From positions 18,848,001 through 18,912,000 of the forward strand of contig OZ316775.1 in NCBI GenBank assembly GCA_973851085.1: a stretch of DNA of 64,000 bases. The letters are read 5' to 3'. Origin of the DNA: Ptychomitrium polyphyllum. Taxonomy: Eukaryota. The position numbers and the translations under genes were made by a program. The notes under the pieces were generated by a model. The model was not told where the DNA came from, did not search any database, and saw only the letters and a list, made by a program, of their open reading frames with translations. This document shows positions 18,201 through 52,600 of the stretch, piece by piece (the stretch's first letter is position 1; each line of letters begins with the position of its first letter).

Positions 18201-18339
18201 GGCTCCTTGTGTTGGGACCGAAAGGCTGGTTTACTAAAATGGTGGGGTGTGCTTTCGTTGGGCAGGCGGCTGCCCTGTGATTAGAGGCACCAAATGGTCT
18301 GCCACAAAGTGGTTGCACGTTGAGATGTACGCAGTGTGA
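15268..18339 (+). CDS. P4H: Prolyl 4-hydroxylase (type II membrane 2OG-Fe(II) dioxygenase); 7 exons, 282 aa
   Basis: Exons 15268-15446, 16336-16417, 16710-16807, 17039-17136, 17433-17562, 17820-18007, 18266-18339 (849 nt). N-terminal TM helix; EVLSWEPR, RTSSGTF, EGLQVLQY..YEAHYDYF, GGQRIATALMYL, GGETVFP, SLHGGCPV..GTKWSATKW. Exon 6 needs a GAG acceptor to stay in frame. Confidence 0.92.
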
Positions 18340-26678: not shown

Positions 26679-29600
26679 TGTCGCGCACCTCTCTTTGAAG
26701 AGTGCCTGCAACACTAAGGGCACAAGGAGGACCCCGGAATGACGTCCGGGACTTGTGGCGCCAATAGTGAGGAGAAATCAAGTGGGCCTAGCATGGGAAG
26801 GACCCCTAGGGGGAGAAACATCCTTGCCCATGTAGACCGAGGGCCACAAGGGATAGATCAAGGACATTGGAGGAATCACAAAGAGCTGATTCTAGAATGC
26901 TAAGGATTGCCCAAATCGGACATGGGAGCTAAAAGTTATGGCATCCCAAAGTTGGGGTTGCCAAGGGGCTGTTCTGGAGTGTGGCAGCCCTACACAGTGA
27001 CTGTGCTGGAGTGGGATAGTCCAGGGAGGGACTCCCCGGGAGTCCCGAACCTTGGGAGAGGCGTATCTCCCACAATACTAACTCAAATTGGACGTTTGAG
27101 GAGTCTATCGGCATCTACGCGAAGAGTAATGACGATAGAGTGGTTGCTCGATACATTCGGGCACCGGATGAGGAAGATATGGCGCCCTCAAGGTCCGCTG
27201 GGAGTCCCGGAGCCTTCCAGCGGCTAAGTCCCAAGGAAGATCGGGTGGTCTTCCAAAACTCTAGGTGTGTCGGGGTTCAGCCAACTCCAAAGGGCCAGGG
27301 GGCCCGCCGAATTCCACAGAGAGTACTATAAGGGAGGGCTGGTCCCCCTCCCCACTCCCCTAGTGTTCCGGTAGAGACCAAGAATGAGTCCCGGTTGGTG
27401 GAGCTAATGTTGGGGCTTCACCACGGGGACTCCCACACCATTGTGAGCCGGTGGACGGCCGGTTTCACAGAGGGAGCTAGCACGTTTAAAAGAGTATGCT
27501 TGTTACCACTAAGTTGGGGTGGTGTCTTCACGCCAGCATTATGATGACCCGGGGTGATCTTAGGATCACATGGGCATCATGAGTGGTGGTGAGGAGACAC
27601 TACTAAGTGCGGTTAGGCCGTGTGGAATGGGAGTAACACCAAGGAGGCCTTGGACATGAATGGAAGTCCGCACCTAACCATTGGCTACTAATAAATTGGG
27701 TGTCCAAAGAGAAATGGTAGAAAGACTTGAAAAGTGAGAATGGGGGTTAACCATGTGCATGTGGAGGTGTACAGGGTTGACGCGCGTAATGCTTGCTAAG
27801 GTGCATTACAAGGGTTGCGACATTTGGTATCAGAGCAGGCTTTAAGTATCTAAGTGCTACGTTGCAAGGAGGCGATGGGTAAGAAGAAAGCCGGTGATGG
27901 CGGTGAGCCCGGGGCCTCTAAACGACCATGCACGAGGGTAAACAAAGACCCTGATCCGATTAATGAGGCTCCATCCTTTGATTCCAATGAGCGAGGGAAT
28001 GACATCGGAGTCACCGTGGAAGTTGAGGAAACTCAACAAGACAAAGCGTTAGAGGGTGGAGAGTACTCAGGAGTTAGGATTCCTGAGCCACCTGAGGGCC
28101 TAGAAAGTCAGGACCCTGACTTGAGTTTTTGCATGAAAATGCTCGAGTTCATGGACGGTGTGAACCAAGAACTCAAGCGTGGCAAAGAAGAAAGGACTCG
28201 TCAAGAGAGGTTGATTGAGCATTTGATGGCACAAGGTTCCAGGTCCTCATCTTCGACCAAGAAGTTGGCCAAGGTGAACATGCCAAGCACTTTTTCTGGG
28301 CTGGGTAAGGCCAGGAAGGTGAAGGAGTTTCTTTTGCAAATGGACAACTATTATGATGTTCAAAGGCCGGAAGAGGTGGAAAAAGTTTCAATTGCGGTGA
28401 CCTTTTTGAAAGACCATGCTCTTCAATGGTGGACAAATAAAAAGCAACAAGAGCCGGAGTTGGTAGCGACTTTGTCTTGGGTCAATTGTAAAGAGATTTT
28501 GAGTGAACACTTCACTTCGAAGTACCAAGAGTTGAGGGAGGGCATGAACTTGGTGCAAATGAGGCACACCAGGTTGCTCAAGACTTATGTGCAAGATTTC
28601 AACGCCCAAATGAATGCCACACTCAAAATGGATGAGTTTTCAAAGAAATGCATCTTTTTAGGTGGACTTCAAAAGTGGGTGGTGGACGCCTTGTTCAAAT
28701 TTCCAAAGCTTCCGGAGGACGTGGCAGGAATCATTAAGATTGCGGAAAGAATTGACGCCGACGGTCCCGAAAGAAAATCAAGTGGTCCCTCTTAATATAG
28801 TGGATTGAGACGAAATGTATCTCGGGGCGGAGAACGTAAGAAATTTGGCTTTGGAAACAAACACAAGGGACAAGTAGATGGAAGGGCCTACAATAAAGTA
28901 GACCATTATGAGAGAAAACCATTCAAATCGGGAGATAAGAGTGCTGAGGTGAAGCACAAGCATTGCCACGGGTGTGGCAAGATTGGTCACTTCATTGCGG
29001 AGTGCCCCGATAAAAAGGTGAGTACCAAAGCTTGTCACACTTGTGTTGTGGATCACATCTTAGAAGGTGGATTTGTGGCCAAGGCTAGTAGCCTTAAGCC
29101 AAGGTTGAGTATCTTATACCTTGAGGCCCAAATAAATGGCAAAAATGTCTCATGTTTGATTGACACAGGGGCAACGCACTCTTTCATGAGTCCCAAGCTA
29201 GCAAGGGAGTTGGGCTTGTCGGCTCAAAGATCTAGCAAGCCCATCAACGTGCGATTTGCAAAAGGCAAACCATACGAGATGAAGAAGGTGGTGTTGGATG
29301 TGGCCTTAAGTAGTGGAACATTGGAGTTGAAGGAAAGCTTTACACTATGTGAGATGGATGAGGTAGACCTCATTTTAGGTGATACCTTTTTCGAAACTCA
29401 TGTGGTGGATGTGAAGCAAAAGCTAGCACGGTTAGTACTGCGCCGTGGTGGAAAGGAGACAATATTGAAGTTGACTAGGACTCCTATGGTTGCTGGAGGC
29501 AAGTTGAACTTAGTCTCTTTAGAACAATTAGAGAATAATCAATTTGTGGTTGTGATGCAAATGGAGCAAGAAGAGGGGAATGGGCCAAGTGCCAAGGAGG

Positions 29601-32600
29601 TTAGGACTATTCCCAAGTGCATTCAAAATGTACTAAGTGGTTACAAGGATGTGCTCACCAATGAGCTGCCCGCAAAGTTACCTCCAAGAAGAGAAGTAGA
29701 TCACAAAATTGAAGTGATACCGGGAACGGAACCCCCTTCTAAGGCTCCATACCGGTTGAACCAAAAAGAGCTAGAGGAATTGAAGAAGCAAATGAATGAC
29801 TTGTTGGAAAGAGGCTATGTTAGGCCAAGTAAGTCACCATATGGAGCACCGGTCCTCTTCGTTGACAAAAAGGATGGCAAGCTCCGCATGTGTGTCGACT
29901 ATAGAGCCTTGAATAAAGCCACCATCAAGAACAACTATCCTTTGCCTCGCATCGATGACCTCTTTGATAGATTGGCGGGAGCTAAATACTTTAGTTGGAT
30001 AGACTTGAAGTCGGGCTACTACCAAATCCGCATTGCGGATGAAGACGTGCCAAAGATCGCATGCCGCACTAGATATGGGTCCTATGAATTTTTGGTGATG
30101 CCATTCGGGTTGTGTAATGCTCCTTCGACGTTCACGACCCTCATGAATACCATCTTTTGAGAAGAGATGGATGACTTTGTCATTGTCTACATTGATGACA
30201 TCTTGGTGTACTCCAAGTCGGCGGAAGAACATGCAAGGCACCTCGAAGTGGTGCTTCAAAAACTTAGGGACCACAACCTTTATGCCAACGGAGAAAAGAG
30301 TGAGTTTGTTCAACTTGAGATTGAGTTCTTGGGCCATATAGTGACGGATGATGGAATCAAGCCGGACATAAGGAAGATAAAGGCAATTAGAGAGTGGAAA
30401 CAACCTTCTACACAAAAGAGGTTGAGATCATTTTCGGCCTAGCAAGTTATTATAGGAGGTTCATACGCAACTTCTCCAAAATTGCTAGACCTTTGACCGA
30501 CTTGTTGAAGAAAGGAGCTAGCCAAGTATGGGATGGATTTTGTCACCAAGCTTTTCAAGAACTCAAGGATAAGTTGTTACAACCGCCGGTATTGAAATTT
30601 CCCGAGTTTGAAAAGCCCTTTGAGGTCCACACGGATGCAAGTGATTTTGCCATTGGCGGAGTGTTCATGCAAGAAAGCATGCCAATTGCCTATGAGAGCA
30701 AGAAGTTGGATGGGTGCCAAAAGAGGTGGCCCACGCACGAGAAAGAACTCTTTGCCGTAGTGCATTGTTTGAAAACATGGCGGCACTACTTGGGCCTACA
30801 TAAAACCAAAGTCTACACGGACAACGTGTCCTTGAAGTACTTTGAGTCGCAAGCACAAATGAGTGCAAAACAATTGAGGTGGCACGACACCTTGGCACTC
30901 ATGAATGTGGATTTGATCCACAAGCCGGGGCGTGACAATGTAGTGCCGGATGCTCTAAGTAGGCGGGAGGAGTTGCAAGCGATGGGCACAACCCAAGTCC
31001 TGCGAGTAATGTACAAGGGAGAAGGCAATTTGGAAAGGAAGATAAGAGAGGGGTACATGAAGGACTCCGAAGCACAAAGGCTTCTCGGCGAGCTTAAGAA
31101 GGGTAAGAAACTTAAAGAAATTAAGTTGGAGAAGGGATTGCTCAAGTACAAACAAAGTCGGGTGTATGTGCTACAAGGAAAATTACGGTTGTTGGTTTTG
31201 AAAGAAGAACATGATAGTCCCATAGCCGGCCATAGAAGGGAAAAAACCACCATTGCAGCGGTGTCAAGAAGGTACTATTGGCCGGGCATGAAAGCGGACA
31301 TCACCGACTTTGTGAAAACTTGTGTGAAGTGCCAACTCAATAGAGCCTCTTACCAAAAGCATGCCGGTCTACTACAACCTTTGCCAATTCCGCCGGGTCC
31401 ATGGCATAGCGTGTCCATGGACTTCATCACAAGTCTTCCAGAATCGCAAGGGCATGATGCCATCTTTGTAATGGTGGATCGCATTAGCAAGTTGGCGCAC
31501 ATGGTGCCAACTAGAGGAACCGTAACTGCACATGAGACCGCAAAGCTATTCCTCGATGCATGGTGGAAACATCACGGGTTGCCGAGAGTGATTGTGTCGG
31601 ACCGAGATCCAAAATTCACTAGTGCTTTTTGGAAACATTTTTTTAGGAAAGTTGGAACCAATTTGACATTTAGCACTGCCTTCCATCTTCAAACGGATGG
31701 GCAAACGGAACGAGTGAATGGAGTCTTGAACCAATACTTGAAGAACTTTGTGAGTGCGGACCAGTGCGATTGGGCGGATTATGTGAACTTAGCGGAGTTC
31801 AGTTACAATGCGGCCAACCATTCGGCGAAAAAGCAGTCGCCATTTAAGGTGGCCTATGGAGCGGAGCCACTCTAGCCTGCCGACTTAGCTCTCGAAGGGG
31901 CACATTCAACACTAGAGTTTAACCAAGATGGTGAGGACTTGGCCAAAAAGCGGGAACAGATGTTGGAAAAGACCAAGCTTTTGTTGGAAAAGGCACAAAA
32001 GCGGTACAAGAAACAAGTCAATGCCGGAAGACGTGAAGTGGAGTATGAAGTAGGCCAAAAGGTATTGTTGAATGTGAAGAACTTTAGCTTGCCCAAAGGC
32101 CTCACTCCAAAGTTCATGTCCAAGTTTGCGGGGCCGTTTTCCATTGTGGAGCGGATGTTTAAAGACGTGTACAAGTTGGAGCTACCACCCAAAATCAAAG
32201 TGCACCCAACATTTCATGTCTCACTTCTTAAGCCATTCAAAAAAGATACCTTGTGGCCCAATCGCAAACAAGTGATTCGGCCACTGCCAGAATTGGTGGG
32301 CAACCACTTGGAATGCAAAGTAGAAGGAATTCTCAAGTGTAGGCACCACAAAAAAGTAGGAAAAGAGTATTTGGTGAAGTGGAGAGGGTACCATGAAAAG
32401 GAAGCAACTTGGGTAGCAGCCAAGGACTTGGGAAATGCCAATGAAGTGGTGGAACGCTTTGAAAGGGATAGGAACTCCAACAAAAGACAACGTCGGCATT
32501 AATGAGAACATCAATCTCTTTTAGTAGGGGGAGAGTGGCTTGTAGTTATAACTTCTTCACATCATGTATTGGTTCCCTGACTTATGGCAATAAAGTTCAT

Positions 32601-34441
32601 TTTTTGTGTGTACAAAGAAAAGAGTATAAGATAACGTCATAGTCTTGTGCTTGTGCTAAGTTGGTAGAAGAGGGGGAATAGACATGTGAAACCAAGTTGG
32701 GAAGGCCGAGTAATAGGGACCAAGGCTTGGAGGAGGAATGGTTAAAACCATGAAACCTCTTAGCCTCGGGCTTGTCCGGGCGAGGACAAGGTAATAAATG
32801 GCGCGTGCTCATAAAAGCGCCACTCCTACAAACTAACAAAAGTTAGTGCATGGGAGTTATGAACCCACGTCTCAATAGAGATAGTGGGATCTAGGTTAGG
32901 CGGAACTTGGCATTTCCCCCCGTGCAATCAAGTTGTGGAATAAAAGCCACCTTGGGTTTGCAACCAAGACAACTTGGTGGAGCATTGAGGTCCAGCCTAG
33001 TCAGAAAGGAAGAGTTAGGGAAGTGTAGCCTAACTAGGGAGTGTATTCCAAGAGGAATTCAAAGTACGTAGGTCTAGAATAATTTAGGGCCCCAAAGATT
33101 TTGGTCTAGGGTGCCTAAATAGACCACTTCCCAAACGACACCTTTGAGACTTTGCCAAAGACTTATGAGTGCATTGTGGGGGTCGCACCCTGGATGAAAC
33201 ACAATGCAGCACCACTAGAGGATGGCAACCTTGGAATTGGTGTGCCGACTATAAGTATAGTCGATGAGGGCATTGACTCCATTTAGGTGGAGGTGAGTGT
33301 TGCGCACCTCTCCTTGAGGAGTGCCGGCAACACTAAGGGCACAAGGAGGACCCCGGAATGACGTCCGGGACTTGTGGCGCCAATAGTGAGGAGAAATCAA
33401 GTGGGCCTAGCATGGGAAGGACCCCTAGGGGGAGAAACATCCTTGCCCATGTAGACCGAGGGCCACAAGGGATAGATCAAGGGCATTGGAGGAATCACAA
33501 AGAGCTGATTCTAGAATGCTAAGGATTGCCCAAATCGGACATGGGAGCTAAAAGTTATGGCATCCCAAAGTTGGGGTTGCCAAGGGGCTGTTCTGGAGTG
33601 TGGCAGCCCTACACAGTGACTGTGCTGGAGTGGGATAGTCCAGGGAGGGACTCCCCGGGAGTCCCGAACCTTGGGAGAGGCGTATCTCCCACAATACTAA
33701 CTCAAATTGGACGTTTGAGGAGTCTATCGGCATCTACGCGAAGAGTAATGACGATAGAGTGGTTGCTCGATACATTCGGGCACCGGATGAGGAAGATATG
33801 GCGCCCTCAAGGTCCGCTGGGAGTCCCGGAGCCTTCCAGCGGCTAAGTCCCAAGGAAGATCGGGTGGTCTTCCAAAACTCTAGGTGTGTCGGGGTTCAGC
33901 CAACTCCAAAGGGCCAGGGGGACCGCCGAATTCCACAGAGAGTACTATAAGGGAGGGCTGGTCCCCCTCCCCACTCCCCTAGTGTTCCGGTAGAGACCAA
34001 GAATGAGTCCCGGTTGGTGGAGCTAATGTTGGGGCTTCACCACGGGGACTCCCACACCATTGTGAGCCGGTGGACGGCCGGTTTCACAGAGGGAGCTAGC
34101 ACGTTTAAAAGAGTATGCTTGTTACCACTAAGTTGGGGTGGTGTCTTCACGCCAGCATTATGATGACCCGGGGTGATCTTAGGATCACATGGGCATCATG
34201 AGTGGTGGTGAGGAGACACTACTAAGTGCGGTTAGGCCGTGTGGAATGGGAGTAACACCAAGGAGGCCTTGGACATGAATGGAAGTCCGCACCTAACCAT
34301 TGGCTACTAATAAATTGGGTGTCCAAAGAGAAATGGTAGAAAGACTTGAAAAGTGAGAATGGGGGTTAACCATGTGCATGTAGGGGTGTACAGGATTGAT
34401 GCGCGTAACGCTTGCTAAGGTGCATTACAAGGGTTGCAACA
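26679..34441 (+). mobile_element. Full-length defective Ty3/gypsy chromovirus, copy 1
   Basis: 1144-bp TG...CA LTRs at 26679-27822 and 33298-34441. tRNA-iMet PBS TGGTATCAGAGC (27825-27836); PPT-like AGGTGGAGGTGAG (33285-33297). Flanks AACTA / TCATC do not match each other. Confidence 0.97.
27875..32502 (+). pseudogene. gag-pol polyprotein (gag, zinc knuckle, protease, RT, RNase H, integrase, chromodomain), disrupted
   Basis: [44 protein letters not shown], chromodomain EYLVKWRGY..EATW. In-frame stops at 28793, 30158 and 31873; frameshift near 30435. Confidence 0.95.
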
Positions 34442-35110
34442 TCATCCTTGCAGCAACTTCCAGAGCAAGTTGGAGAGTTGAAGGCTCTTACAAACTTCTT
34501 CTTAAATGGGTATTCAATTTTGCAGCAATTTTCAAAGTAAATTGGAGAGTTGAAGGCTCTTAGAAACTTGTATTTAAATGGGTGTTTTACCTTGCAGCAA
34601 CTTTCAGAGCAAATTGGGAGGTATAAGGCTCTTACTTCGTTGAGTCTAAACGGGTGTTCATCCTTGGAGCAACTTCTAAAGCAAATTGGGGAGTTGAAGG
34701 CTCTTACGTACTTGGACCTAGATGGGTGGTCATCCTTGCAGCAACTTCTAGAGCAAATTGGGGAGTTGAAGGCTCTTACATCCTTGGACCTATATGGGTG
34801 TTCATTCTTGCAGCAACTTTTGTAGCAAATTGGGGAGTTGAAGGCTCTTATGTCCTTGGACCTATCTAGATGTATATCCTTACCACAACTTTATCGGCAA
34901 GTTGAGGATTTGAAGGACCTTATGGACTTGGATTTTTGTGGTGCTCATTCTTCAAATAACTTCCTTTGCAAATTGGAAAGTTGAGTGCTCTTATGTATTT
35001 GAATCTATATAGATGCTCATCCATGCAGCATTTTCTCCAACAATTTGGAAAATTAATGGCTTATATATATTCATTTATTTAAAGGTGTTTATCTTAGTAG
35101 CAACTTTACT
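34442..35110 (+). pseudogene. Orphaned, decaying 3' LRR tail (~9 repeats) of NLR copy B
   Basis: Starts TCATCCTTGCAGCAACTTCC (SSLQQLP) directly after the LTR. Same 72-bp unit as the NLR arrays, with stops near 34537 and 34823 and progressive degeneration. Confidence 0.9.
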
Positions 35111-38100
35111 AGTACTTTTGGAATTTATAAGTTTTATTTTTTTGAACATAAGATGTTGTTAATTTTGGAATCATCATATAATGAATATTAGTGTATAATA
35201 GTATTATATTTAACAAAAACTAATAGAATAATTTTTCTATTATACAAATGAATTTGTTTAAATGAAGATTTGATTTCTAGGCTATCATATTTAAAGAATT
35301 GGACCTAATAATATTTCAACTTATATTTGTACTAAGTATTTACATTTATATTTATATTTATCTCATTTTGGAATAATAAACATTATATAACAATGTAAAG
35401 TACAAACAACATTGTAGAGAAGAATTTGGTAGTTTGACAAAGTCAAATTTCAAATTTATTTATAAAAACAATCAAAAATCATATTTGGCAATTCCACAAA
35501 ACCTTCTTGTTATTAATTTGAAACATTAGATAATGTGATTGATAGAAGGTGCTATATTCATTCTTTAAGTATTAAAATTGGATGACATATAATAAGATAA
35601 TTACAATCAAATACCAAGGCATTTTGTTTCAAGCTATGTTTTGCAATACTACATTAATCCCAAAATATTATCATTAGTTCCATTCTTGGCATGAATGTGA
35701 TTTGTAATCATCGATGGAAAAATGACTAAGAAGTGCTAGAGTTGTTGGCAATAGTTGATGCTTGATAATAAAAAATATACAATCAAATTTATTTCAACAA
35801 TCTAAATGTAAGCTCATCTTTTCAAAACATTTTAGGCAACAAGTCATTTTTATAGAGGTTTGAAGATACTTAGATATATTGAAATGTATGCCAAAAGATG
35901 TATCTTAAAAATGTATTAATATATAATGATTTTGACCCTTAGAATAGGCCGTCCAAAAGAATGGTCCATCTATACTTTTATGTGCAAATAAGCCGTAAAA
36001 TATTTGAAAACATAAGTAATTTAAATATTTCTTTTGAAAGAACTTGCTCTTATGGGTTTCCAGAAATTCAAATACATGATGTATAGGATAAGTTAATACA
36101 AATTTTTAATCTAAACATTAAAAACAACATACAAATTTTGAACTCATAAAAAAAAAAAAAACGTCTAGAATTTTGGTTGAAAATTTATATCATAATAATG
36201 GACTAGGTATTATGATTTGATTTGAGATAATAGGTCTATTTATTTTTCAAATATATTAAAACCATATACTTTTCAAATATTTTTAAAAACATGTACTTTT
36301 CTAATATTCTCTGAAATACTTTTAAATACGTGCTTTATTCTGTGATTTAAACCAGGATCCCTATGGCCACACAGATGTAATAAAATCCTCAATACAAATA
36401 GAACGTAGACTTGCTAAGCTGTGTTGAACATGATGAAGGCGATGAGGCCCCAAGGATGTGGTCCATTCACAGTGAGTCTTTTAAGGAACTCCCTGGGGGT
36501 CTGCTCGTGTATAATTTCCTTCGTACATGTCTGGAAGTTTTCAGTATAGAAAAAACGAGTGAACAAAACCTCAACTTCGACTACCGGTACTCTGGCTTCT
36601 TCGACAGAAGTGGAAAGCATGCACTAAAAGGGGATTGGAGCTGTGCGTTTTACACGAACCATTTTAACTCAAAACAACTGACCAGAATCCAACACAAACA
36701 AGTTAGGTAGCCCATATAGAACCTAAATAAGCTGCAACGACAAAAACATTCGTTTCTTGTGAACAGAACATCCATATTTGCTTCTGCAAAGAGAGCGAGC
36801 TGAACGCATGAAAAACAATGCGTGTGATTGTTCGGGTAGCGAAGTTGGTTGGCCACAGCACTCGAAAACAGGTCCCGTCCTTCAGTATCAAAGTCAGTCA
36901 ATGAAAATATCCATGTGTTACGAGTGCTGTTGGAATTGCCAATTGCTGTGGTGTTGTCTGGCTTTGCATGTGTTGTGATGCCTGTGCACAAGAGGATGAA
37001 GTATTCAGACTATCAGTAATGCTCATTGTCCTGCTGACTGCCGATCAATGCGGCGTTCATGCTAAGCTATTCATCACGGTCAAACTAAAATACATGACAT
37101 CATTGGCAAGAGTACTCTGAACCCGACGCAAAACTGCACTAACATATTGTGCGCCCTAAGATGTCACTGAGATACACTATAGAAAGTCAGATTTGGAGGT
37201 GGTACCGGCATGCCAATGTACAGCACCGGGGCATTTGTAAGAGGCACGTTGTATTTTGTGCCATGAGGAACACCCTCAGTTGTAGGTAAAACAAGTCGCG
37301 CCTTGATATCCAATTATTGGAAAGATTGAGAATGTCTCGTCCGCTCATCCAGCATTAATATATTCAGTATAGTACGAAACAGCGGTATGATCTTGAAACT
37401 CCACCGTCTAAACGAATCTAGAAACTACATCAGAAGCGGGGGCACACAGACAAGACCATAATCTTCCATTCTGGTTATTTGGTAGAATTTCAAGACTGCT
37501 TGTCAATTATGTGAATTATGTGAAGATTGTTATTTGGTGGCAGATGGAGCCATTTATCAAGAGCTCAGTTGTGCCCGTACGAGATGAGTACCCCAAAGAG
37601 TGAGTCCCTACCGAACAAGATCGTGGGTCTCAAGAAAACACTAGCAAATGTCCAACAACTATAAATAGAACTCAAGGTAGTGTTCACTGCTCGAACTTCC
37701 ACCAACTTTCAATTTGATGCACTTGAATTGGGTATACTTTCTTGTCCATAGTTTCCGTACAGGGAAGGATGTTGTATCGTAATTGTTGTAATGTTTTTCT
37801 AGGCTTGTGTCATGAGTGAACGACTTCCTATATTTCTGAAACGGTGAAATGTTTCTCGAAATCCTGACTAGATTCTTCAGAAATCTTATAATGTGCTCTT
37901 GTTTACTGATCAGACTGCAAAAGAAGTACCTCTGCTGACACTGCTAAGAAAGCTCTGCAGTGGGCAGAGAAGGGGGAGTCGGACTTCTTTGTAGAAACAT
38001 TTGTGCCCTGCCCGGAAGAGCGGCTTTCTTTTGAAGCTCTGCAGCCAATTGTAGGGAACCCTTGCTATCACTATGTCGAGCAATTCGTAGCGTGGCCACG

Positions 38101-39381
38101 GCGATAACTCTGCTCATGCGGTCAGGCATTCTTCTCTCTCTCACCTTTTTTGTTCCTATACTTTTTTCAGTTCATGAGGTGGACCGTGTCTCATGATGAT
38201 GTGGGCAGTAGGGCGAGCCCAGTGTTCGATTAATATTGAGTTCCAGCAGTTCTGGCGCTGTGTTTACCTTTGCAGTTGAAACCATTTTGAGACACGACTT
38301 GCGGCTCTTGGTGCTACAAAATGGCTGGCTGAGCATGATGCCGAGCCTGCACAATGACATGTTTCCGATGAGAATATATACAGCAGCTTTTAAGCATATT
38401 GACCAAAGAGTCTTCACATTACCCACCATCTGAAATTATAACAGTTCTAATAGAAAAATGCCAGAGAGCTGACTAAAACCAACTTGAACGTCAATAACTT
38501 TGGAAGTGCTCCGTCCAGACAACCATACAATCCATTTAAACTGAAACAAATGCATATGCAAACCTGAAGTTACAAATCGAAAAAGAAGACCAAGTACATC
38601 ATTATTTTTCACGCCAAGCAAGCCAGCTAACCAATCCACAAGCATTACCCCATCATGTTATGCGAGCTATTAGATTGAAGAGAAAGATATGAATGTATTA
38701 ACATGCACCTGAAATCCTTTTGGTTGATTTCAAATATACAGGGTAGTAGCCTATTGAGTACTCACAAGAGCTTTGCCGGTGTCACAGAAACAGGGAAACC
38801 TGTTCCTTCGAATCACAATAACAGGAAATGATCATGTGGAAATTACAGTAGTTATGTACAACCCCGAGAAAGCAAAATAGAGTAGGGCTTTCACTACAAA
38901 ATAGGCTTGTGAACGTTGGAGTCACCGTCGTTTGCAAGGCGAGGTATCAAATCCTGAAACGTAAAACTACAGTTCACCAAAGGCCCAAAGTTTTTGAAAC
39001 AGGAATCGCACCTTAGAGCTCCATCGAAAAACAGGGATTCAAAAAATTGTTCCCTCAAAAGATTGCAGAAGATTAGCCTAAAATGTACTTGCAATCAATG
39101 ACATTGATAATCGAGAGCAACCCCATTGAGAAAATAAAATTCATCCCAGAAGGCTTCAGTGCAGAGGAAAGGCCAACTCTAAATAGAAAAGCCACAGCGA
39201 TCGTCTACTGATGAATCGAACTTGTAGGACATCATCACCATCTTCCCAACTCCACAATACCAATTCCGGAGATCAAAGGTGAGGGTTTTGTTCCAACCAA
39301 TTTCCTGGGCACCGCCAAGACACTTCTCAATTGCCCAAGAAACTCATCAGAGTAGCCAGTCAATGTGTGCAGGTAGCGTAC

Positions 39382-39614
39382 CATGAAGCAGAGGTCCGGC
39401 CATAGCGTGATGAAGTAGCGATAGGTGAAGATCGAGTAAGGCTCTGACAACTCCTGGTCAATCAACGCCATGATATCCGGCAGCTGCGTCTCATCTTTGT
39501 ACGAAACGTACTCCATGCGGCCATCACCGCCACTCTTCGTCTCGCCCTCCTCCACCTTCACTCCATCTCTCTCCCCACATCCGCATCCGCTCCCCTTCTC
39601 TCTGCCTCCGCCAT
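39382..39614 (-). pseudogene. NAA30: N-alpha-acetyltransferase 30 (NatC catalytic subunit, MAK3) exon 1; probably a pseudogene
   Basis: MEYVSYKDETQLPDIMALIDQELSEPYSIFTYRYFITLWPDLCFM followed by a GT donor (39381). The upstream ATG at 39614 is out of frame. No intact downstream exons found, only a possible eroded remnant near 38880-38955. Telo-boxes at 39782 and 39961. Confidence 0.8.
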
Positions 39615-41951
39615 AGCGCTCCCAATTCGCCGTCAAAGTCGCAAGCTTCTCTGATGAATCAATCAACACCCACACACATCGGCATCGCCAAACACTCACG
39701 TCCCTGACACACTGCCCTCTGTCCGTCTCCACACATCAAACAGAAGTTACCCCTCCCACCTCCGCAAGCCTTCTTCACACAAAACCCTAGTAATACATCC
39801 GCCACAGCTCTCACTCCACTCTCACATTGCCGAATCTTCACTCTTGAATGCCAAGCCCTCACTGTTCCTAGCTTAAAATACGATTGAATGTAGACCCTAA
39901 CACGGCACTCCATTCTCATAATCAAGCTCGGATGAGCGAATCAGTGCCCTAATCCTCATTTAGGGTTTACTCCAAAACACTGAATAAACCATTAACTTCA
40001 GTTCCTGAAATTCTGTTTCGCTGCTCTGCTTTGTGCATCTCATCAGCTTGGAGCTAAGTTGATGCGTAGCTCCCTTGGACCTCTGTATCTTTGCTGCCAC
40101 ACATGCACAAATCTTATATCAGCTGAGTCTGTGCAAGATGACATTACAGGTACCATGCTGTGCTGTACTGTGATATATGCTGTACCATACGCTGTAGTGC
40201 ATTATACACTATATTATGTACTGATATGTACTGTATTAAGGATTGTATCGATCGTGAGCATACGAAACACTGGCAACACTTGGTTTCTGAATAGTGTTAT
40301 TGATGCTCTGTGCAAGCTCGAGAACTTGCCACCTTACTAGTTATTGCTAGCATCCATTCTGAGGGGCAAGATGGTGGTGTTCACAGTGACCTCCGCCCTT
40401 GCTAGAAACAGTGGTTGAAACAAAAGTGGGTCAAGTTGATTGGATAAGAGTGATTTGAGGTGCTTCACCTTGCAGTGCCCAGGGTTGTTCATGCAGACTT
40501 GAATTTTCAATAATCTTTTCGCTGGAGCTCTTACTGCCAAAATCATATGAGTTGGTTTAAGAAGACAAGTGTATACGTCCAGTGGCAAAGCAATTACCTA
40601 GCTGCATGCCGAATTTGGAGTTAAACCAAACCAGATGGTTTTGGTGCAATACCGTAACTGTATTCTAACCGTATTCTGTGATTTAAAAGCGAGAGATTTC
40701 ATGGGATGTGTTCTTTGAGGTTCAGTAGATATGGGGCTGATTTTCTCTAAAACGAAGTTGAATGGGTGCACATATTGGTAGCTTTTGAATGAGATATCAC
40801 ATGCACAAGAGATCATTTTTCATTATTGTGAATCATTAGTTACATAGAATAAGAGTGAGTTGAGGTAAAAGGGATTATTTAAAGTATTTTAGATTGTGAT
40901 GATGGTAGGATTTTAAGATGCATTTCATCAAGGAATGTAAGGGTTGTGTCGTTATTATATAGTAAATATGTGAGTGGAAAATGTCTCAATATTTCATGGT
41001 GGTGTTTTAATATGATTTTCAAAATTTTAGGTGATTATATTTTTAGAAATAGAACTTCAAGATCTATTATGAAGAATATCTTCTAAAAAATTTGAATAAG
41101 TTTAAGGGGACTTTGATGTACATGGGAAAATTCATAAAGTGATTGAGATTTTTGCCAAAGAATTGCACCTCATAATACCTATGTGGTGCAACTACACTTA
41201 CTTGCTCCTCATATCAAAGTTGTAATCTAATTAGATGATGCTACAACATTGTATTTGCTTGAACTTGGTAATGAATTAATGCTTGACAATAAATTATTAA
41301 CTTCAATGAATTGGTGCTAAAACAACAGGTCATAATATTGATACTTTTGATAAATTTGACTCATAGTCATTAGATAATATTTGTAAAGGCAATAAAATAG
41401 ACTCTTCTTAAATGCTACCTCTTTAAACGTTATAAAACCTTGATTGTTCTTTTTTGGCACTTTCAATAAAAATATACTTGCAAACATCATGTCTTAAATG
41501 TTAAACAACTTAAGAAAATATACACTCTTTCTTTTGTAAATCCACCTTTGATAAATATTATTTTTGTTATTTCTACTAATATATGGTATTCTTACAGATA
41601 TGTATTACATATAAATAATCATTGATTTTTTAGTTATAATGAAAATGAATCTATTTAGGATTGGAATTTAAGATTTTTTAGGGAGCTTTCTTTTATAAGT
41701 ATGAATTATCTTGTTTGCCAATTGATGAGGAGACTTTTTATACTTTTTAAAGTAAATAATGCAGCTTAAGATGAAAAAGATGACAAAGTTGGTACAATCA
41801 CCTCCACAAGTTGAATATTTACAATTACAATAATCAAATTGACAATTGATTATGGTAATTCCAAGCTAAAATATATTAAAAATAATTTAGCAAAATTTCT
41901 AATTCAATGCACTTATGTAAGTACTATTAATAAATATTTCTCTAATAACAT

Positions 41952-42185
41952 TGTCGCAATCTTTGCAATGCACCTTAACAAACATCATGAATGCCAACCT
42001 TGTACACCTCTACATGCACATGATTAGCTCCTATTTCTACTCTCCAAATTCAAGGCTTAGATTCCAATTTTTCTTACTCATTTTCCTAAAAACACCTAAT
42101 TGGTCAATAGCCAACAATTAAATGTGGACTTTTATTCATATATAAGGCCTCATTTGGTGTTACTTCTATTCTACAAGACCTAATT
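41952..42185 (-). mobile_element. Old solo LTR, 3' part (continuation of 25741-26678)
   Basis: On the minus strand it reads AATTAGGTCTTGTAGAATAGAAGTAACACC...GATTGCGACA, resuming at the LTR position where 26678 stops. Followed by ATGTT (41951-41947). Confidence 0.88.
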
Positions 42186-45100
42186 TGTCGCAACCTTTGT
42201 AATGCACCTTAGCAAGCATTACGCGCGTCAACCCTGTACACCTCCACATGCACATGGTTAACCCCCATTCTCACTTTTCAAGTCTTTCTACCATTTCTCT
42301 TAGGACACCCAATTTATTAGTAGCCAATGGTTAGGTGCGGACTTCCATTCATGTCCAAGGCCTCCTTGGTGTTACTCCCATTCCACACGGCCTAACCGCA
42401 CTTAGTAGTGTCTCCTCACCACCACTCATGATGCCCATGTGATCCTAAGATCACCCCGGGTCATCATAATGCTGGCGTGAAGACACCACCCCAACTTAGT
42501 GGTAACAAGCATACTCTTTTAAACGTGCTAGCTCCCTCTGTGAAACCGGCCGTCCACCGGCTCACAATGGTGTGGGAGTCCCCGTGGTGAAGCCCCAACA
42601 TTAGCTCCACCAACCGGGACTCATTCTTGGTCTCTACCGGAACACTAGGGGAGTGGGGAGGGGGACCAGCCCTCCCTTATAGTACTCTCTGTGGAATTCG
42701 GCGGTCCCCCTGGCCCTTTGGAGTTGGCTGAACCCCGACACACCTAGAGTTTTGGAAGACCACCCGATCTTCCTTGGGACTTAGCCGCTGGAAGGCTCCG
42801 GGACTCCCAGCGGACCTTGAGGGCGCCATATCTTCCTCATCCGGTGCCCGAATGTATCGAGCAACCACTCTATCGTCATGTACTCTTCGCGTAGATGCCG
42901 ATAGACTCCTCAAACGTCCAATTTGAGTTAGTATTGTGGGAGATACGCCTCTCCCAAGGTTCGGGACTCCCGGGGAGTCCCTCCCTGGACTATCCCACTC
43001 CAGCACAGTCACTGTGTAGGGCTGCCACACTCCAGAACAGCCCCTTGGCAACCCCAACTTTGGGATGCCATAACTTTTAGCTCCCATGTCCGATTTGGGC
43101 AATCCTTAGCATTCTAGAATCAGCTCTTTGTGATTCCTCCAATGCCCTTGATCTATCCCTTGTGGCCCTCGGTCTACATGGGCAAGGATGTTTCTCCCCC
43201 TAGGGGTCCTTCCCATGCTAGGCCCACTTGATTTCTCCTCACTATTGGCGCCACAAGTCCCGGACGTCATTCCGGGGTCCTCCTTGTGCCCTTAGTGTTG
43301 CCGGCACTCCTCAAGGAGAGGTGCGCAACACTCACCTCCACCTAAATGGAGTTAATGCCCTCATCGACTATACTTATAGTCGGCACACCAATTCCAAGGT
43401 TGCCATCCTCTAGTGGTGCTGCATTGTGTTTCATCCAGGGTGCGACCCCCACAATGCACTCATAAGTCTTTGGCAAAGTCTCAAAGGTGTCGTTTGGGAA
43501 GTGGTCTATTTAGGCACCCTAGACCAAAATCTTTGGGGCCCTAAATTATTCTAGACCTACGTACTTTGAATTCCTCTTGGAATACACTCCCTAGTTAGGC
43601 TACACTTCCCTAACTCTTCCTTTCTGACTAGGCTGGACCTCAATGCTCCACCAAGTTGTCTTGGTTGCAAACCCAAGGTGGCTTTTATTCCACAACTTGA
43701 TTGCACGGGGGGAAATGCCAAGTTCCGCCTAACCTAGATCCCACTATCTCTATTGAGACGTGGGTTCATAACTCCCATGCACTAACTTTTGTTAGTTTGT
43801 AGGAGTGGCGCTTTTATGAGCACGCGCCATTTATTACCTTGTCCTCGCCCGGACAAGCCCGAGGCTAAGAGGTTTCATGGTTTTAACCATTCCTCCTCCA
43901 AGCCTTGGTCCCTATTACTCGGCCTTCCCAACTTGGTTTCACATGTCTATTCCCCCTCTTCTACCAACTTAGCACAAGCACAAGACTATGACGTTATCTT
44001 ATACTCTTTTCTTTGTACACACAAAAAATGAACTTTATTGCCATAAGTCAGGGAACCAATACATGATGTGAAGAAGTTATAACTACAAGCCACTCTCCCC
44101 CTACTAAAAGAGATTGATGTTCTCATTAATGCCGACGTTGTCTTTTGTTGGAGTTCCTATCCCTTTCAAAGCGTTCCACCACTTCATTGGCATTTCCCAA
44201 GTCCTTGGCTGCTACCCAAGTTGCTTCCTTTTCATGGTACCCTCTCCACTTCACCAAATACTCTTTTCCTACTTTTTTGTGGTGCCTACACTTGAGAATT
44301 CCTTCTACTTTGCATTCCAAGTGGTTGCCCACCAATTCTGGCAGTGGCCGAATCACTTGTTTGCGATTGGGCCACAAGGTATCTTTTTTGAATGGCTTAA
44401 GAAGTGAGACATGAAATGTTGGGTGCACTTTGATTTTGGGTGGTAGCTCCAACTTGTACACGTCTTTAAACATCCGCTCCACAATGGAAAACGGCCCCGC
44501 AAACTTGGACATGAACTTTGGAGTGAGGCCTTTGGGCAAGCTAAAGTTCTTCACATTCAACAATACCTTTTGGCCTACTTCATACTCCACTTCACGTCTT
44601 CCGGCATTGACTTGTTTCTTGTACCGCTTTTGTGCCTTTTCCAACAAAAGCTTGGTCTTTTCCAACATCTGTTCCCGCTTTTTGGCCAAGTCCTCACCAT
44701 CTTGGTTAAACTCTAGTGTTGAATGTGCCCCTTCGAGAGCTAAGTCGGCAGGCTAGAGTGGCTCCGCTCCATAGGCCACCTTAAATGGCGACTGCTTTTT
44801 CGCCGAATGGTTGGCCGCATTGTAACTGAACTCCGCTAAGTTCACATAATCCGCCCAATCGCACTGGTCCGCACTCACAAAGTTCTTCAAGTATTGGTTC
44901 AAGACTCCATTCACTCGTTCCGTTTGCCCATCCGTTTGAAGATGGAAGGCAGTGCTAAATGTCAAATTGGTTCCAACTTTCCTAAAAAAATGTTTCCAAA
45001 AAGCACTAGTGAATTTTGGATCTCGGTCCGACACAATCACTCTCGGCAACCCGTGATGTTTCCACCATGCATCGAGGAATAGCTTTGCGGTCTCATGTGC

Positions 45101-48100
45101 AGTTACGGTTCCTCTAGTTGGCACCATGTGCGCCAACTTGCTAATGCGATCCACCATTACAAAGATGGCATCATGCCCTTGCGATTCTGGAAGACTTGTG
45201 ATGAAGTCCATGGACACGCTATGCCATGGACCCGGCGGAATTGGCAAAGGTTGTAGTAGACCGGCATGCTTTTGGTAAGAGGCTCTATTGAGTTGGCACT
45301 TCACACAAGTTTTCACAAAGTCGGTGATGTCCGCTTTCATGCCCGGCCAATAGTACCTTCTTGACACCGCTGCAATGGTGGTTTTTTCCCTTCTATGGCC
45401 GGCTATGGGACTATCATGTTCTTCTTTCAAAACCAACAACCGTAATTTTCCTTGTAGCACATACACCCGACTTTGTTTGTACTTGAGCAATCCCTTCTCC
45501 AACTTAATTTCTTTAAGTTTCTTACCCTTCTTAAGCTCGCCGAGAAGCCTTTGTGCTTCGGAGTCCTTCATGTACCCCTCTCTTATCTTCCTTTCCAAAT
45601 TGCCTTCTCCCTTGTACATTACTCGCAGGACTTGGGTTGTGCCCATCGCTTGCAACTCCTCCCGCCTACTTAGAGCATCCGGCACTACATTGTCACGCCC
45701 CGGCTTGTGGATCAAATCCACATTCATGAGTGCCAAGGTGTCGTGCCACCTCAATTGTTTTGCACTCATTTGTGCTTGCGACTCAAAGTACTTCAAGGAC
45801 ACGTTGTCCGTGTAGACTTTGGTTTTATGTAGGCCCAAGTAGTGCCGCCATGTTTTCAAACAATGCACTACGGCAAAGAGTTCTTTCTCGTGCGTGGGCC
45901 ACCTCTTTTGGCACCCATCCAACTTCTTGCTCTCATAGGCAATTGGCATGCTTTCTTGCATGAACACTCCGCCAATGGCAAAATCACTTGCATCCGTGTG
46001 GACCTCAAAGGGCTTTTCAAACTCGGGAAATTTCAATACCGGCGGTTGTAACAACTTATCCTTGAGTTCTTGAAAAGCTTGGTGACAAAATCCATCCCAT
46101 ACTTGGCTAGCTCCTTTCTTCAACAAGTCGGTCAAAGGTCTAGCAATTTTGGAGAAGTTGCGTATGAACCTCCTATAATAACTTGCTAGGCCGAAAATGA
46201 TCTCAACCTCTTTTGTGTAGAAGGTTGTTTCCACTCTCTAATTGCCTTTATCTTCCTTATGTCCGGCTTGATTCCATCATCCGTCACTATATGGCCCAAG
46301 AACTCAATCTCAAGTTGAACAAACTCACTCTTTTCTCCGTTGGCATAAAGGTTGTGGTCCCTAAGTTTTTGAAGCACCACTTCGAGGTGCCTTGCATGTT
46401 CTTCCGCCGACTTGGAGTACACCAAGATGTCATCAATGTAGACAATGACAAAGTCATCCATCTCTTCTCAAAAGATGGTATTCATGAGGGTCGTGAACGT
46501 CGAAGGAGCATTACACAACCCGAATGGCATCACCAAAAATTCATAGGACCCATATCTAGTGCGGCATGCGATCTTTGGCACGTCTTCATCCGCAATGCGG
46601 ATTTGGTAGTAGCCCGACTTCAAGTCTATCCAACTAAAGTATTTAGCTCCCGCCAATCTATCAAAGAGGTCATCGATGCGAGGCAAAGGATAGTTGTTCT
46701 TGATGGTGGCTTTATTCAAGGCTCTATAGTCGACACACATGCGGAGCTTGCCATCCTTTTTGTCAACGAAGAGGACCGGTGCTCCATATGGTGACTTACT
46801 TGGCCTAACATAGCCTCTTTCCAACAAGTCATTCATTTGCTTCTTCAATTCCTCTAGCTCTTTTTGGTTCAACCGGTATGGAGCCTTAGAAGGGGGTTCC
46901 GTTCCCGGTATCACTTCAATTTTGTGATCTACTTCTCTTCTTGGAGGTAACTTTGCGGGCAGCTCATTGGTGAGCACATCCTTGTAACCACTTAGTACAT
47001 TTTGAATGCACTTGGGAATAGTCCTAACCTCCTTGGCACTTGGCCCATTCCCCTCTTCTTGCTCCATTTGCATCACAACCACAAATTGATTATTCTCTAA
47101 TTGTTCTAAAGAGACTAAGTTCAACTTGCCTCCAGCAACCATAGGAGTCCTAGTCAACTTCAATATTGTCTCCTTTCCACCACGGCGCAGTACTAACCGT
47201 GCTAGCTTTTGCTTCACATCCACCACATGAGTTTCGAAAAAGGTATCACCTAAAATGAGGTCTACCTCATCCATCTCACATAGTGTAAAGCTTTCCTTCA
47301 ACTCCAATGTTCCACTACTTAAGGCCACATCCAACACCACCTTCTTCATCTCGTATGGTTTGCCTTTTGCAAATCGCACGTTGATGGGCTTGCTAGATCT
47401 TTGAGCCGACAAGCCCAACTCCCTTGCTAGCTTGGGACTCATGAAAGAGTGCGTTGCCCCTGTGTCAATCAAACATGAGACATTTTTGCCATTTATTTGG
47501 GCCTCAAGGTATAAGATACTCAACCTTGGCTTAAGGCTACTAGCCTTGGCCACAAATCCACCTTCTAAGATGTGATCCACAACACAAGTGTGACAAGCTT
47601 TGGTACTCACCTTTTTATCGGGGCACTCCGCAATGAAGTGACCAATCTTGCCACACCCGTGGCAATGCTTGTGCTTCACCTCAGCACTCTTATCTCCCGA
47701 TTTGAATGGTTTTCTCTCATAATGGTCCACTTTATTGTAGGCCCTTCCATCTATTTGTCCCTTGTGTTTGTTTCCAAAGCCAAATTTCTTACGTTCTCCG
47801 CCCCGAGATACATTTCGTCTCAATCCACTATGTTAAGAGGGACCACTTGATTTTCTTTCGGGACCGTCGGCGTCAATTCTTTCCGCAATCTTAATGATTC
47901 CTGCCACGTCCTCCGGAAGCTTTGGAAATTTGAACAAGGCGTCCACCACCCACTTTTGAAGTCCACCTAAAAAGATGCATTTCTTTGAAAACTCATCCAT
48001 TTTGAGTGTGGCATTCATTTGGGCGTTGAAATCTTGCACATAAGTCTTGAGCAACCTGGTGTGCCTCATTTGCACCAAGTTCATGCCCTCCCTCAACTCT

Positions 48101-49696
48101 TGGTACTTCGAAGTGAAGTGTTCACTCAAAATCTCTTTACAATTGACCCAAGACAAAGTCGCTACCAACTCCGGCTCTTGTTGCTTTTTATTTGTCCACC
48201 ATTGAAGAGCATGGTCTTTCAAAAAGGTCACCGCAATTGAAACTTTTTCCACCTCTTCCGGCCTTTGAACATCATAATAGTTGTCCATTTGCAAAAGAAA
48301 CTCCTTCACCTTCCTGGCCTTACCCAGCCCAGAAAAAGTGCTTGGCATGTTCACCTTGGCCAACTTCTTGGTCGAAGATGAGGACCTGGAACCTTGTGCC
48401 ATCAAATGCTCAATCAACCTCTCTTGACGAGTCCTTTCTTCTTTGCCACGCTTGAGTTCTTGGTTCACACCGTCCATGAACTCGAGCATTTTCATGCAAA
48501 AATTCAAGTCAGGGTCCTGACTTTCTAAGCCCTCAGGTGGCTCAGGAATCCTAACTCCTGAGTACTCTCCACCCTCTAACGCTTTGTCTTGTTGAGTTTC
48601 CTCAACTTCCACGGTGACTCCGATGTCATTCCCTCGCTCATTGGAAGCAAAGGATGGAGCCTCATTAATCGGATCAGGGTCTTTGTTTACCCTCGTGCAT
48701 GGTCGTTTAGAGGCCCCGGGCTCACCGCCATCACCGGCTTTCTTCTTACCCATCGCCTCCTTGCAACGTAGCACTTAGATACTCAAAGCCTGCTCTGATA
48801 CCAAATGTCGCAACCCTTGTAATGCACCTTAGCAAGCATTACGCGCGTCAACCCTGTACACCTCCACATGCACATGGTTAACCCCCATTCTCACTTTTCA
48901 AGTCTTTCTACCATTTCTCTTAGGACACCCAATTTATTAGTAGCCAATGGTTAGGTGCGGACTTCCATTCATGTCCAAGGCCTCCTTGGTGTTACTCCCA
49001 TTCCACACGGCCTAACCGCACTTAGTAGTGTCTCCTCACCACCACTCATGATGCCCATGTGATCCTAAGATCACCCCGGGTCATCATAATGCTGGCGTGA
49101 AGACACCACCCCAACTTAGTGGTAACAAGCATACTCTTTTAAACGTGCTAGCTCCCTCTGTGAAACCGGCCGTCCACCGGCTCACAATGGTGTGGGAGTC
49201 CCCGTGGTGAAGCCCCAACATTAGCTCCACCAACCGGGACTCATTCTTGGTCTCTACCGGAACACTAGTGGAGGTTTGGGAGAGGCGTATCTCCCACAAG
49301 GTTTGGGAGAGGCGTATCTCCCAAGGTTTGGGACTCCCGGGGAGTCGCTCCCTGGACTATCCCATCTCAGCACAGTCACTGTATAGGGCTGCCACACTTC
49401 AGAATAGCCCCTTGGCAACCTCAACTTTGGGGTGCCATAACTTTTAGCTCCCATGTCCGATTTGGATAATTCATAGCATTCTAAAATCAGCTCTTCGTGA
49501 ATCCTTCAATGTCCACGATTTATCTCTCGTGGCCCTCGGTCTACATGGACAAGGATGTTTCTCCCTCTAGAAGTCTTTCCTATGTTAGGCCAACTCGGTT
49601 CTCCTCACTATCGGCACCTCAAGTCCCGGACGTCACTTAAGAATCCCTCTTGTGCCCTTAGATTTGTGGGCACTCCTGAAAGAGAGGTGCGCGACA
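42186..49696 (-). mobile_element. Defective Ty3/gypsy chromovirus, copy 2 (inverted relative to copy 1)
   Basis: Position x maps to ~76628-x. 3' LTR 42186-43330; 5' LTR 48806-49696 (891 bp, internal deletion, diverged outer part); PBS next to 48805. Same stops and frameshift as copy 1, with a few SNPs in gag. Confidence 0.97.
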
Positions 49697-52600
49697 GATG
49701 AATATCCGTTTAAACTCAAGGAAGTAAGAGCCTTTAACTCCACAATTTGCTCTGGAAGTTGCTGCAAGGATGAACACCCATCTAGGTCTAAGTTCGTAAG
49801 AGCCTTCAACTCCCGAATTTGCTCTGGAAGTTGCTGCAAGGATGAACACCCATAGAGATTCAAGTTCGTAAGAGCCTTCAATTTCCCAATTTGCTCTGGA
49901 AGTTGCTGCAAGGATGAACAACCATATAGGATCAAATCTGTAAGAGCCTTCAACTCCCCAGTTTGCCTTGGAAGTTGCTGCAAGGATGAACACCCATATA
50001 GATTCAAGTACGTAAGAGCCTTCAACTCCCCAATTTGCTCTGGAAGTTGCTGCAAGGATGAACACCCATTTAAGTACAAGTACGTAAGAGCCTTCAGCTC
50101 CCCAATTTGCTTTGGAAGTTGTTGCAAGGATGAACACCCAGTTAAGTACAAATTTGTAAGAGCCTTCAACTCTCCAATTTGCTCTGGAAGTTGCTGCAAG
50201 GATGAACACCCATTTAAGCACAAGTTCATAAGAGCCTTCAACTCTCCAACCTGTGCTGGAAGTTGCTGCAAGGATGAACACTCGTATAGGTTCAAGTTTG
50301 TAAGAGCCTTCAACTCCCCAATTTGCTCTGGAAGTTGCTGCAAGGATAAACATCCATCTAGGTTCAAGTTTATAAGAGCCTTCAACTCCCTAATTTGTAC
50401 TGGAAGTTGCTGTAAGGATGAACACCCAGTTAAGTACAAGTTTGATAGAGCCTTCAATCCCCCAATTTGCTCTGGAAGTTGCTGCAAGGATGAACACTCA
50501 TAAAGATTCAAGTTCGTTAGAGCCTCCAACTCTCTAATTTGCTCTGGAAGTTGCTGCAAGGATAAACACCCATCTAGGTTCAAGTTTGTAAGAGCCTTCA
50601 ACCCCCCAATTTGCTTTGGAAGTTGCTGCAAGGACGAACACCCATCTAGGTCCAAGTTTGTAAGAGCCTTCAACTCCCCAATTTTCTCTGGAAGTTGCTG
50701 CAAAGATGAACACCCATTTAAGTATAAGTTTGTAACAACCTTCAACTCTCCAATTTGCTCTGGAAGTTGCTGCAAAGATGAACACCCAGTTAAGTACAAG
50801 TTTGTAAGAGCCTTCAATTCCCCAATTTGCTCTGGAAGTTGTTGCAAGGATAAACACCCATCTAGGTTCAAGTTTATAAGAACCTTCAATTCCCCAATTT
50901 GCTCTGGAAGTTGCTGCAAGGATGAACACCCATATAGTTTCAAATACGTAAGAGCCTTCAACCTCCCAATTTGCTCTGGAAGTTGCTGCAAGGATAAACA
51001 CCCATATAGATTCAAGTACGTAAGAGCCTTCAACCCCCCAATTTTCTCTGGAAGTTGCTGCAAGGATAAACACCCATATAGATTCAAATACGTAAGAGCC
51101 TTCAACTCCCCAATTTGCTCTGGAAGTTGCTGCAAGGATGAACACCCATATAGTTTCAAGTACGTAAGAGCCTTCAACTCTCCAATTTGCTGTGGAAGTT
51201 GCTCCAAGGATGAACACCCAGTTAAGTACAAGTTTGTAAGAGCCTTCAACCCCCCAATTTGCTTTGGAAGTTGCTGTAAGGATGAACACCCATAAAGATT
51301 CAAGTTTGTAAGAGCCTTTAGCTGTCCAATTTGCTCTGGAAGTTGCTGCAAGGACGAACACCCATTTAAGTGCAACTTTGCAAGAACCTTCAACCCCCCA
51401 ATTTGCTCTGGAAGTTGTTGCAAGGATGAACACCCATATAGATTCAAGTACGTAAGAGCCTTCAACTCCCCAATTTGCTCTGGAAGTTGCTGCAAGGATG
51501 AACATCCATTTAAGTACAAGTTTGTAAAAGCCTTCAACTCCCCAATTTGCTCTAAAAGTTGTTGCAATGATGAGCATCCAGTTAAGTACAAGTTTGTAAG
51601 AGCCTTCAACTCCCCAATTTGCTCTGGAAGTTGCTGTAAGGATGAACACTCATATAAATTCAAGTTCGTAAGAGCCTTCAACTCCCCAATTTGCTTGGGA
51701 AGTTGCTGCAAGGATGAACACCTTGTCAAATTCAAGTTCGTAAGAGCCTTCAACTCCCCAATTTGCTTTGGAAGTTGCTGTAAGGATGAACACCCAGTTA
51801 AGTACAAGTTTGTAAGAGCCTTCAACCCCCCAATTTGCTCTGGAAGTTGCTGCAAAGATGAACATCCATCTAGATTCAAGTTTGTAAGAGCCTTCAACTC
51901 CCCAATTTGCTCTGGAAGTTGTTGCAAGGATGAACACCCATTTAAGTGCAACTTTGAAAGAGCCTTCAACCCTCCAATTTGCTTTGGAAGTTGCTGCAAG
52001 GATGAACACCCATAAAGATTCAAGTTTGTCAAAGCCTTCAACTCTCCAATTTGCTCTGGTAGTTGCTGCAAGGATGAACATCCATTTAAGTACAAGTTTG
52101 TAAAAGCCTTCAACTCTCCAATTTGCTTTGGAAGTTGCTGCAAGGATGAACACCCAGTTAAGTACAAGTTTGTAAGAGCCTTCAACTTCCCAATTTGCTT
52201 TGGAAGTTGCTGCAAGGATGAACATCCAAATAGGTCCAATAATGTAAGAGCCTTCAACTCCCCAATTTGCTCTGGAAGTTGCTGCAAGGATGAACACCTA
52301 TTTAGGTCTAAGTTTGTAAGAGCCTTCAACTCCCCAATTTGCTTTGGAAGTTGCTGCAAGGATGAACAACCATATAGGACCAAGTCTGTAAGAGCCTTCA
52401 ACTCCCCAATTTGCGCAGGAAGTTGCTGCAAGGATGAACATCCATCTAGGTCCAAGTTCGTAAGAGCCTTCAACTCCCCAATCTGCACAGGAAGTTGTTG
52501 CAAGGATAAACACCCATTTAAGTACAAGTTCGCAAGAGCCTTCATCTCCCCAATTTGCTCTGGAAGTTGCTGCAAGGATGAACACCCATTTAAGTACAAG

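Follow-up and report, generated by a model that had tools for sequence, protein, structure and literature searches.

Two related retrotransposons and the DNA between them were analysed in a 64,000-nucleotide stretch of the moss Ptychomitrium polyphyllum (contig OZ316775.1, positions 18,848,001 to 18,912,000 of the forward strand), called the window throughout. Along the window, the order of features is lipoyl synthase (- strand), prolyl 4-hydroxylase (+), the nucleotide-binding leucine-rich-repeat (NLR) gene NLR-A (+), an old solo long terminal repeat (LTR), retrotransposon copy 1, a 7,744-bp spacer (34442..42185), retrotransposon copy 2, a second NLR gene, NLR-B (-), and GTF3C1 (-). The spacer holds a leucine-rich-repeat (LRR) tail, AT-rich DNA, an NAA30-like exon and the right part of the solo LTR. 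A first-pass annotation had proposed that it was inverted between the two elements. The flanking sequences support this for the assembled spacer relative to its state at insertion, and the spacer was probably turned by homologous recombination between the two inverted copies.

Both elements are Ty3/gypsy LTR retrotransposons with a chromodomain. Pfam matches were ordered gag, protease, reverse transcriptase, RNase H, integrase, SH3 and C-terminal chromodomain (Chromo, E 8e-14), and LTR ends of the form TG...CA, a primer-binding site, which we take to be of the tRNA-Met type, a polypurine tract and 5-bp target-site duplications (TSDs) were present. Copy 1 (26679..34441, +) comprises a 5' LTR (26679-27822), an internal region (27823-33297) and a 3' LTR (33298-34441). 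Copy 2 (42186..49696, -), of the same family, comprises a 5' LTR of 891 bp (49696-48806), an internal region (48805-43331) and a 3' LTR (43330-42186). The copies lie in opposite orientation and are 99.7% identical over 7,100 bp (27345-34441 against 49285-42186).

Exchanged flanks and spacer orientation

The six flanking 5-mers reported by the first-pass annotation were all found where it had placed them, as was its crosswise pattern. Copy 1 is preceded by AACTA (26674..26678, +) and followed by TCATC (34442..34446, +). Copy 2 is preceded by TCATC (49697..49701, -) and followed by AATTA (42181..42185, -). On their own sides, the flanks of each element differ at 4/5 bases. Compared crosswise, AACTA and AATTA show one mismatch, AATTA being nearer to the corresponding site of the young LTR of the family, and the two TCATC copies and the two ATGTT copies bordering the old solo LTR (25736-25740 and 41951-41947) show none. 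Each element thus has one flank from each of two insertions: insertion A, which interrupted an older solo LTR from a related family (AACTA/AATTA), and insertion B, which split the LRR array of NLR-B (TCATC). All three pairs match, as had been claimed, but ATGTT and AACTA/AATTA witness the same site, so that two sites are involved and not three. Chance matches were ruled out by mismatch counts, by the solo-LTR register described below and by local background rates in 18,932 host 5-mers (0.21% for ATGTT, 2.6% within one mismatch of AACTA and 0.20% for TCATC).

The register of the solo LTR is stronger evidence than the 5-mers. Its left part, with ATGTT at its outer end (25736..26678, +; LTR part 25741-26678), is 67% like positions 9-932 of the young LTR. 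Its right part, likewise with ATGTT (41947..42185, -; LTR part 42185-41952), is 69% like positions 935-1144. When the spacer was flipped back, the left half ended at young-LTR position 932 and the right half resumed at 935, with the 5-bp duplication at the gap, which bears out the proposed restoration of the old LTR. The rejoined sequence is a solo LTR of 1,167 bp, running from TGTTAT to GCGACA, with ATGTT on both sides and no internal region.

At the other end, NLR-B (49633..54465, -) has an open frame of 1,610 aa from its ATG that ends about 20 codons inside the element LTR and includes 41 LRR units of 24 aa (49697-52681) without a stop. Units 16 and 36 are identical, a sign of recent expansion or conversion. 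A detached, decayed LRR tail of this gene lies at 34447..35106 (+); it keeps the 72-bp register, and its units 2 and 6 contain stops. Its first six units are on average 10.5 bases off the array majority, compared with 6.5 for the 41 array units. Flipping the spacer back made codon phase and 72-bp register continuous across the junction, as expected if the frame were restored, but a stop follows at codon 33 from 34442, and no long NLR reading frame is gained because the tail had already decayed. Since TCATC is the end of 33/41 NLR-B units, the register (about 1 in 72) is the real test at this site, and the insertion is placed in the array without pinpointing a single unit. Assignment of the tail to NLR-A (20546..23056, +), which lies on the same strand and encodes NB-ARC, a winged helix and about 10 LRR units, was rejected: that gene runs out in a degenerate end of its own at about 23100-23180, which is 3.5 kb short of the element, and breaks in a different phase of the LRR unit.

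Both the solo LTR and the LRR array are rejoined by this reading and by no other. The proposed boundaries can be refined, in that the inverted segment extends into the elements beyond 34442-42185. Synteny could not polarise the spacer, because the 80 loci with an NAA30 exon that were compared matched the window, in 42 cases, only at that exon. The NAA30-like exon itself (39516-39382, -; PDB 7mx2, E 5.5e-16) is probably a gene fragment; no further NAA30 exon was found by tblastx against 4 related loci.

The two copies and the putative crossover

The four LTRs do not form two matched pairs. Of 891 bases aligned between the two LTRs of copy 2, which enclose a young core, 71 differ. In its 5' LTR, the first 394 bp are only 86% like the young LTR, after which about 280 bp are deleted and a short filler duplication is present. 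Across 49696-49270, the old-type U3 (86%) is joined out of register to young LTR over this deletion, the filler duplication measuring about 25 bp. The last 60 bp of the copy 1 3' LTR (34382..34441, +), beside the TCATC junction, carry 6 private differences, compared with 0 and 1 in the LTR tails of copy 2. Both old LTR ends, the 3' end of copy 1 and the 5' end of copy 2, are the ends flanked by TCATC, from which insertion B appears to be an old shell with a young core.

Between the copies, 8 substitutions were counted in 27360-28900, 2 differences in 28901-34324 and 8 in 34325-34441, four further events at the filler junction being excluded. The near-identical tract thus spans 5,424 bp (28901..34324, +), and differences cluster outside it, with 8 in the 1,541 bp of 27360-28900 and 2 in the 5,424 bp of the tract (p = 1.6e-4, the boundaries having been set post hoc). 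The match is exact over at most 4,374 bp (28901-33274, equal to 47727-43354); within the tract, the copies can be told apart at 33275 and 33747. The pol of copy 1 is broken by two stops and a frame change, and the frame boundaries are the same in copy 2. Seven contigs of run X1 diverge from the window at the shared frame change (30434), so the shared tract is not a family-wide consensus. It is later homogenisation, by conversion or by assembly. Outside the tract, both copies have an in-frame stop between gag and protease (28793-28795), which may be the natural gag stop or an old lesion.

The pattern expected of reciprocal chimeras was seen at LTR column 1029 and at the old LTR end only, the 5.4-kb shared tract erasing the rest. 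Column 1029 is A in the LTRs of copy 1 (27706 and 34325) and T in those of copy 2 (42302 and 48922). The distance from each of these bases to its own unique flank is 0.1-1.0 kb, and the column is independent of long-range assembly for that reason. The LTR beside the right TSD of insertion A has the allele of B, and the LTR beside the right TSD of B has that of A. With moderate weight, a crossover is likely to have occurred in the last 115 bp or so of the 3' LTRs, between column 1029 and the old LTR end. On the base pattern of this one site, the putative crossover window is 34326..34381 (+), with its partner at 42301-42246 (-), a segment identical in all four LTRs. The two 3' LTRs also share 6 alleles against the 5' LTR of copy 1, four of them in the first 29 bp.

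The most likely sequence of events would begin with insertion B, which cut NLR-B, probably long ago. B is judged the older insertion on two grounds: divergence of 10-14% from the young family at its outer ends, and decay of the LRR tail that follows it. Its interior would later have been replaced by young family sequence. Insertion A would have entered the old solo LTR, 7.7 kb away and in opposite orientation, and A and B could then have exchanged a tract of about 5.4 kb, including the disabling lesions, by conversion. A crossover near the 3' ends of the copies would finally have turned the spacer round. No intact gene would have been lost by this step, NLR-B having already been cut by insertion B and keeping an open frame that ends in the LTR. 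The flip appears to make or lose no gene, so that its biological consequence would be small.

Contig evidence and alternative explanations

Of three runs listed, all in the form of contigs, two contain the spacer, with 0.84 and 0.83 of its sequence words in short contigs; both are from one sample, which is perhaps the assembly's own. For each query, 16 contig pieces were listed among thousands. In the spacer, 15/16 listed pieces were without other letters, at a depth of 34-40 in run X2. Base quality of the window looks high, given the absence of any N, the 41 LRR units without a stop and these clean spacer pieces. Of the four element junctions, 26678/26679 was the one that appeared among the listed pieces, covered without other letters; on the LTR side, coverage reached only 30 letters, one below the rule for bridging. 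Loose ends of run X2 before 34442 and 34444 were of LRR type and did not match the last unit of NLR-B. One joint from 34441 to 41952, with a side of 24 letters, was discounted as a repeat-to-repeat match originating elsewhere, and the exact 28 bases of the NLR-B flank gave 0 matches in metagenome contigs. Further contigs, at 23476-24000 and 35798-41795, had depths of 45-66 (about 1.5x single) with several % other letters and indels, which suggests that the sample contains the region in a second, diverged form, be it homeologue, haplotype or duplicate. The element family is very abundant in the sample, with 31,153 and 7,119 contigs on the stretch with the 5' LTR and interior of copy 1.

Several points weigh against a real inversion by recombination between the copies. 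No contig among the listed pieces spans an element, so that the orientation of the spacer in the molecules is probable rather than proven. No empty-site or un-inverted allele was found among the listed rows (8 joints and 12/132 loose ends, from one sample). The argument from tail decay to age is weak, the last units of NLR-A being degenerate too. The six alleles common to the 3' LTRs overwrite a simple reciprocal-chimera pattern, so that column 1029 must be an unconverted patch. Placement of the crossover depends on one base, whose allele could have been supplied by third copies of this abundant family.

The strongest competing explanation, which we consider unlikely although it retains appreciable weight, is that the genome is un-inverted and that the assembler crossed between the copies inside the identical tract, possibly collapsing it. 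Exact runs as long as the 4,374 bp between the copies and the 6,246 bp between the NLR arms described below are also expected from repeat collapse or polishing. The clustering of differences outside the tract, and at the outer termini beside unique DNA in particular, is what anchored polishing would leave; the library type is not on record, and the second, diverged copy of the region counts in its favour too. However, a swap inside the 4,374-bp run does not explain column 1029, for which a separate reciprocal exchange would be needed, and residual differences persist inside the tract. In the NLR arms, the assembly follows minority alleles where the majority path of the deeper contigs has other letters (16 in 792 bp), and reads longer than about 5 kb would be expected to phase the copies.

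It is far less probable still that the arrangement is genuine but came about without reciprocal crossing-over of finished elements, for example by template-switch repair that copied a young element into the old LTR and reversed the spacer in one event. The out-of-register change from old to young at the deletion with filler duplication in the copy 2 5' LTR, and the old outer ends and young core of element B, would fit such an event, and complementary DNA (cDNA) conversion of inserted copies is common in yeast (PMC5371812). Against it, neither TSD pair and none of the four LTR termini is damaged, no host DNA was lost or duplicated at the junctions, and the eight substitutions in 27360-28900 show that a single event did not also copy the 5' interior of B from A.

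The surrounding locus and known inversions

Outside the elements, an inverted duplicate frames the locus. Its left arm (16560..22805, +) contains 3' exons of the prolyl 4-hydroxylase gene, which starts upstream at about 15270, and the 5' part of NLR-A. The edge of its right arm (52203..58448, -) falls where the match to GTF3C1 ends, at residue 880 of 1,958; the remainder of GTF3C1 is not in the 64-kb window. The arms are identical over 6,246 bp without a difference. Arm contigs had depths of 231-248 in run X2, compared with 32-35 in nearby single-copy pieces, and differed from the window by up to 2%. With depth taken as a rough guide, this points to several more arm copies in the sample, the two arms of the window being closer to each other than to those. 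Because NLR-B has a decayed tail and 41 units and NLR-A about 10, the exact identity is more likely to reflect conversion in recent times, or collapse, than a duplication that has only just arisen.

A broader reading is offered tentatively and as a whole. The 42 kb from 16560 to 58448 may form a nested quasi-palindrome in which recurrent conversion from arm to arm maintains the likeness of the arms, with both pairs of arms acting as live flip sites. Several orientations would then segregate, the NLR front ends would be homogenised while the LRR arrays diverge, and element B would be an old insertion whose core has been replaced in situ by young family sequence. Its basis is the exact identity of the outer arms while deeper-covered copies elsewhere differ by about 2%, together with the near-identity of the inner retrotransposon arms over 5.4 kb, with four outer ends still old. 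The long homogenised arms are the part that merits follow-up.

Lipoyl synthase and prolyl 4-hydroxylase are arranged head to head at 12400-15400, directly upstream of NLR-A. The best relatives of the NLR were Ceratodon purpureus proteins with 56-58% identity, the Ceratodon relatives being 803-938 aa long. Another broken Ty3/gypsy element, of a different family, lies at 4594-8900 (gag, reverse transcriptase, RNase H and integrase pieces), and a 118-bp piece at 4160-4277 is repeated in inverted orientation at 63954-63837 with 87% identity.

The Galileo inversions of Drosophila were recognised by copies in opposite orientation, exchanged TSDs and chimeric copies, and attributed to ectopic recombination (Delprat et al. 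2009, PMC2775673). In inversion 2z3 of Drosophila buzzatii, copies of one family lie in opposite orientation at the breakpoints, with exchanged TSDs and chimeric copies (PMC2775673). In the present locus, homologous inverted copies were likewise found at the breakpoints, and the TSDs are exchanged with host sequence rejoining in register. Galileo 2z3, in contrast, involves a DNA transposon with 7-bp TSDs and a large inversion, non-inverted chromosomes were sequenced, and chimerism extends over 53 sites (PMC2775673), whereas the moss pair consists of LTR retrotransposons with 5-bp TSDs around 7.7 kb, no non-inverted allele was seen, and chimerism is blurred by the shared tract. In yeast, crossover between inverted Ty1 elements turns the intervening DNA round and produces hybrid elements (PMC9879454), and inserted Ty/Tf copies are overwritten by cDNA conversion (PMC5371812). 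Those events were induced or observed in the laboratory and checked with long reads (PMC9879454, PMC5371812); the moss case is natural and unverified. Transposon-linked inversions have also been described in cod (PMC12368964). Among mosses, RLG1 of Physcomitrium patens is an abundant gypsy family whose integrase carries a chromodomain and for which insertion into transposon-rich DNA has been suggested (PMC7466625). The present elements resemble it in description, insertion A lying inside an older related LTR. No plant case of exchanged TSDs at LTR elements came up in literature searches, which were narrow and do not show that none has been published.

Such copies defeat both dating by LTR pairs and annotation by TSDs, since the flanks do not match in either element and the LTRs of copy 2 differ from each other as noted above. 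If real, the arrangement is a base-resolved retrotransposon-mediated inversion in a plant, inside an immune-receptor locus and polarised by two independent host sequences. It is of a known kind, ectopic inversion between transposon copies as in Galileo and Ty1, and a clean example of it.

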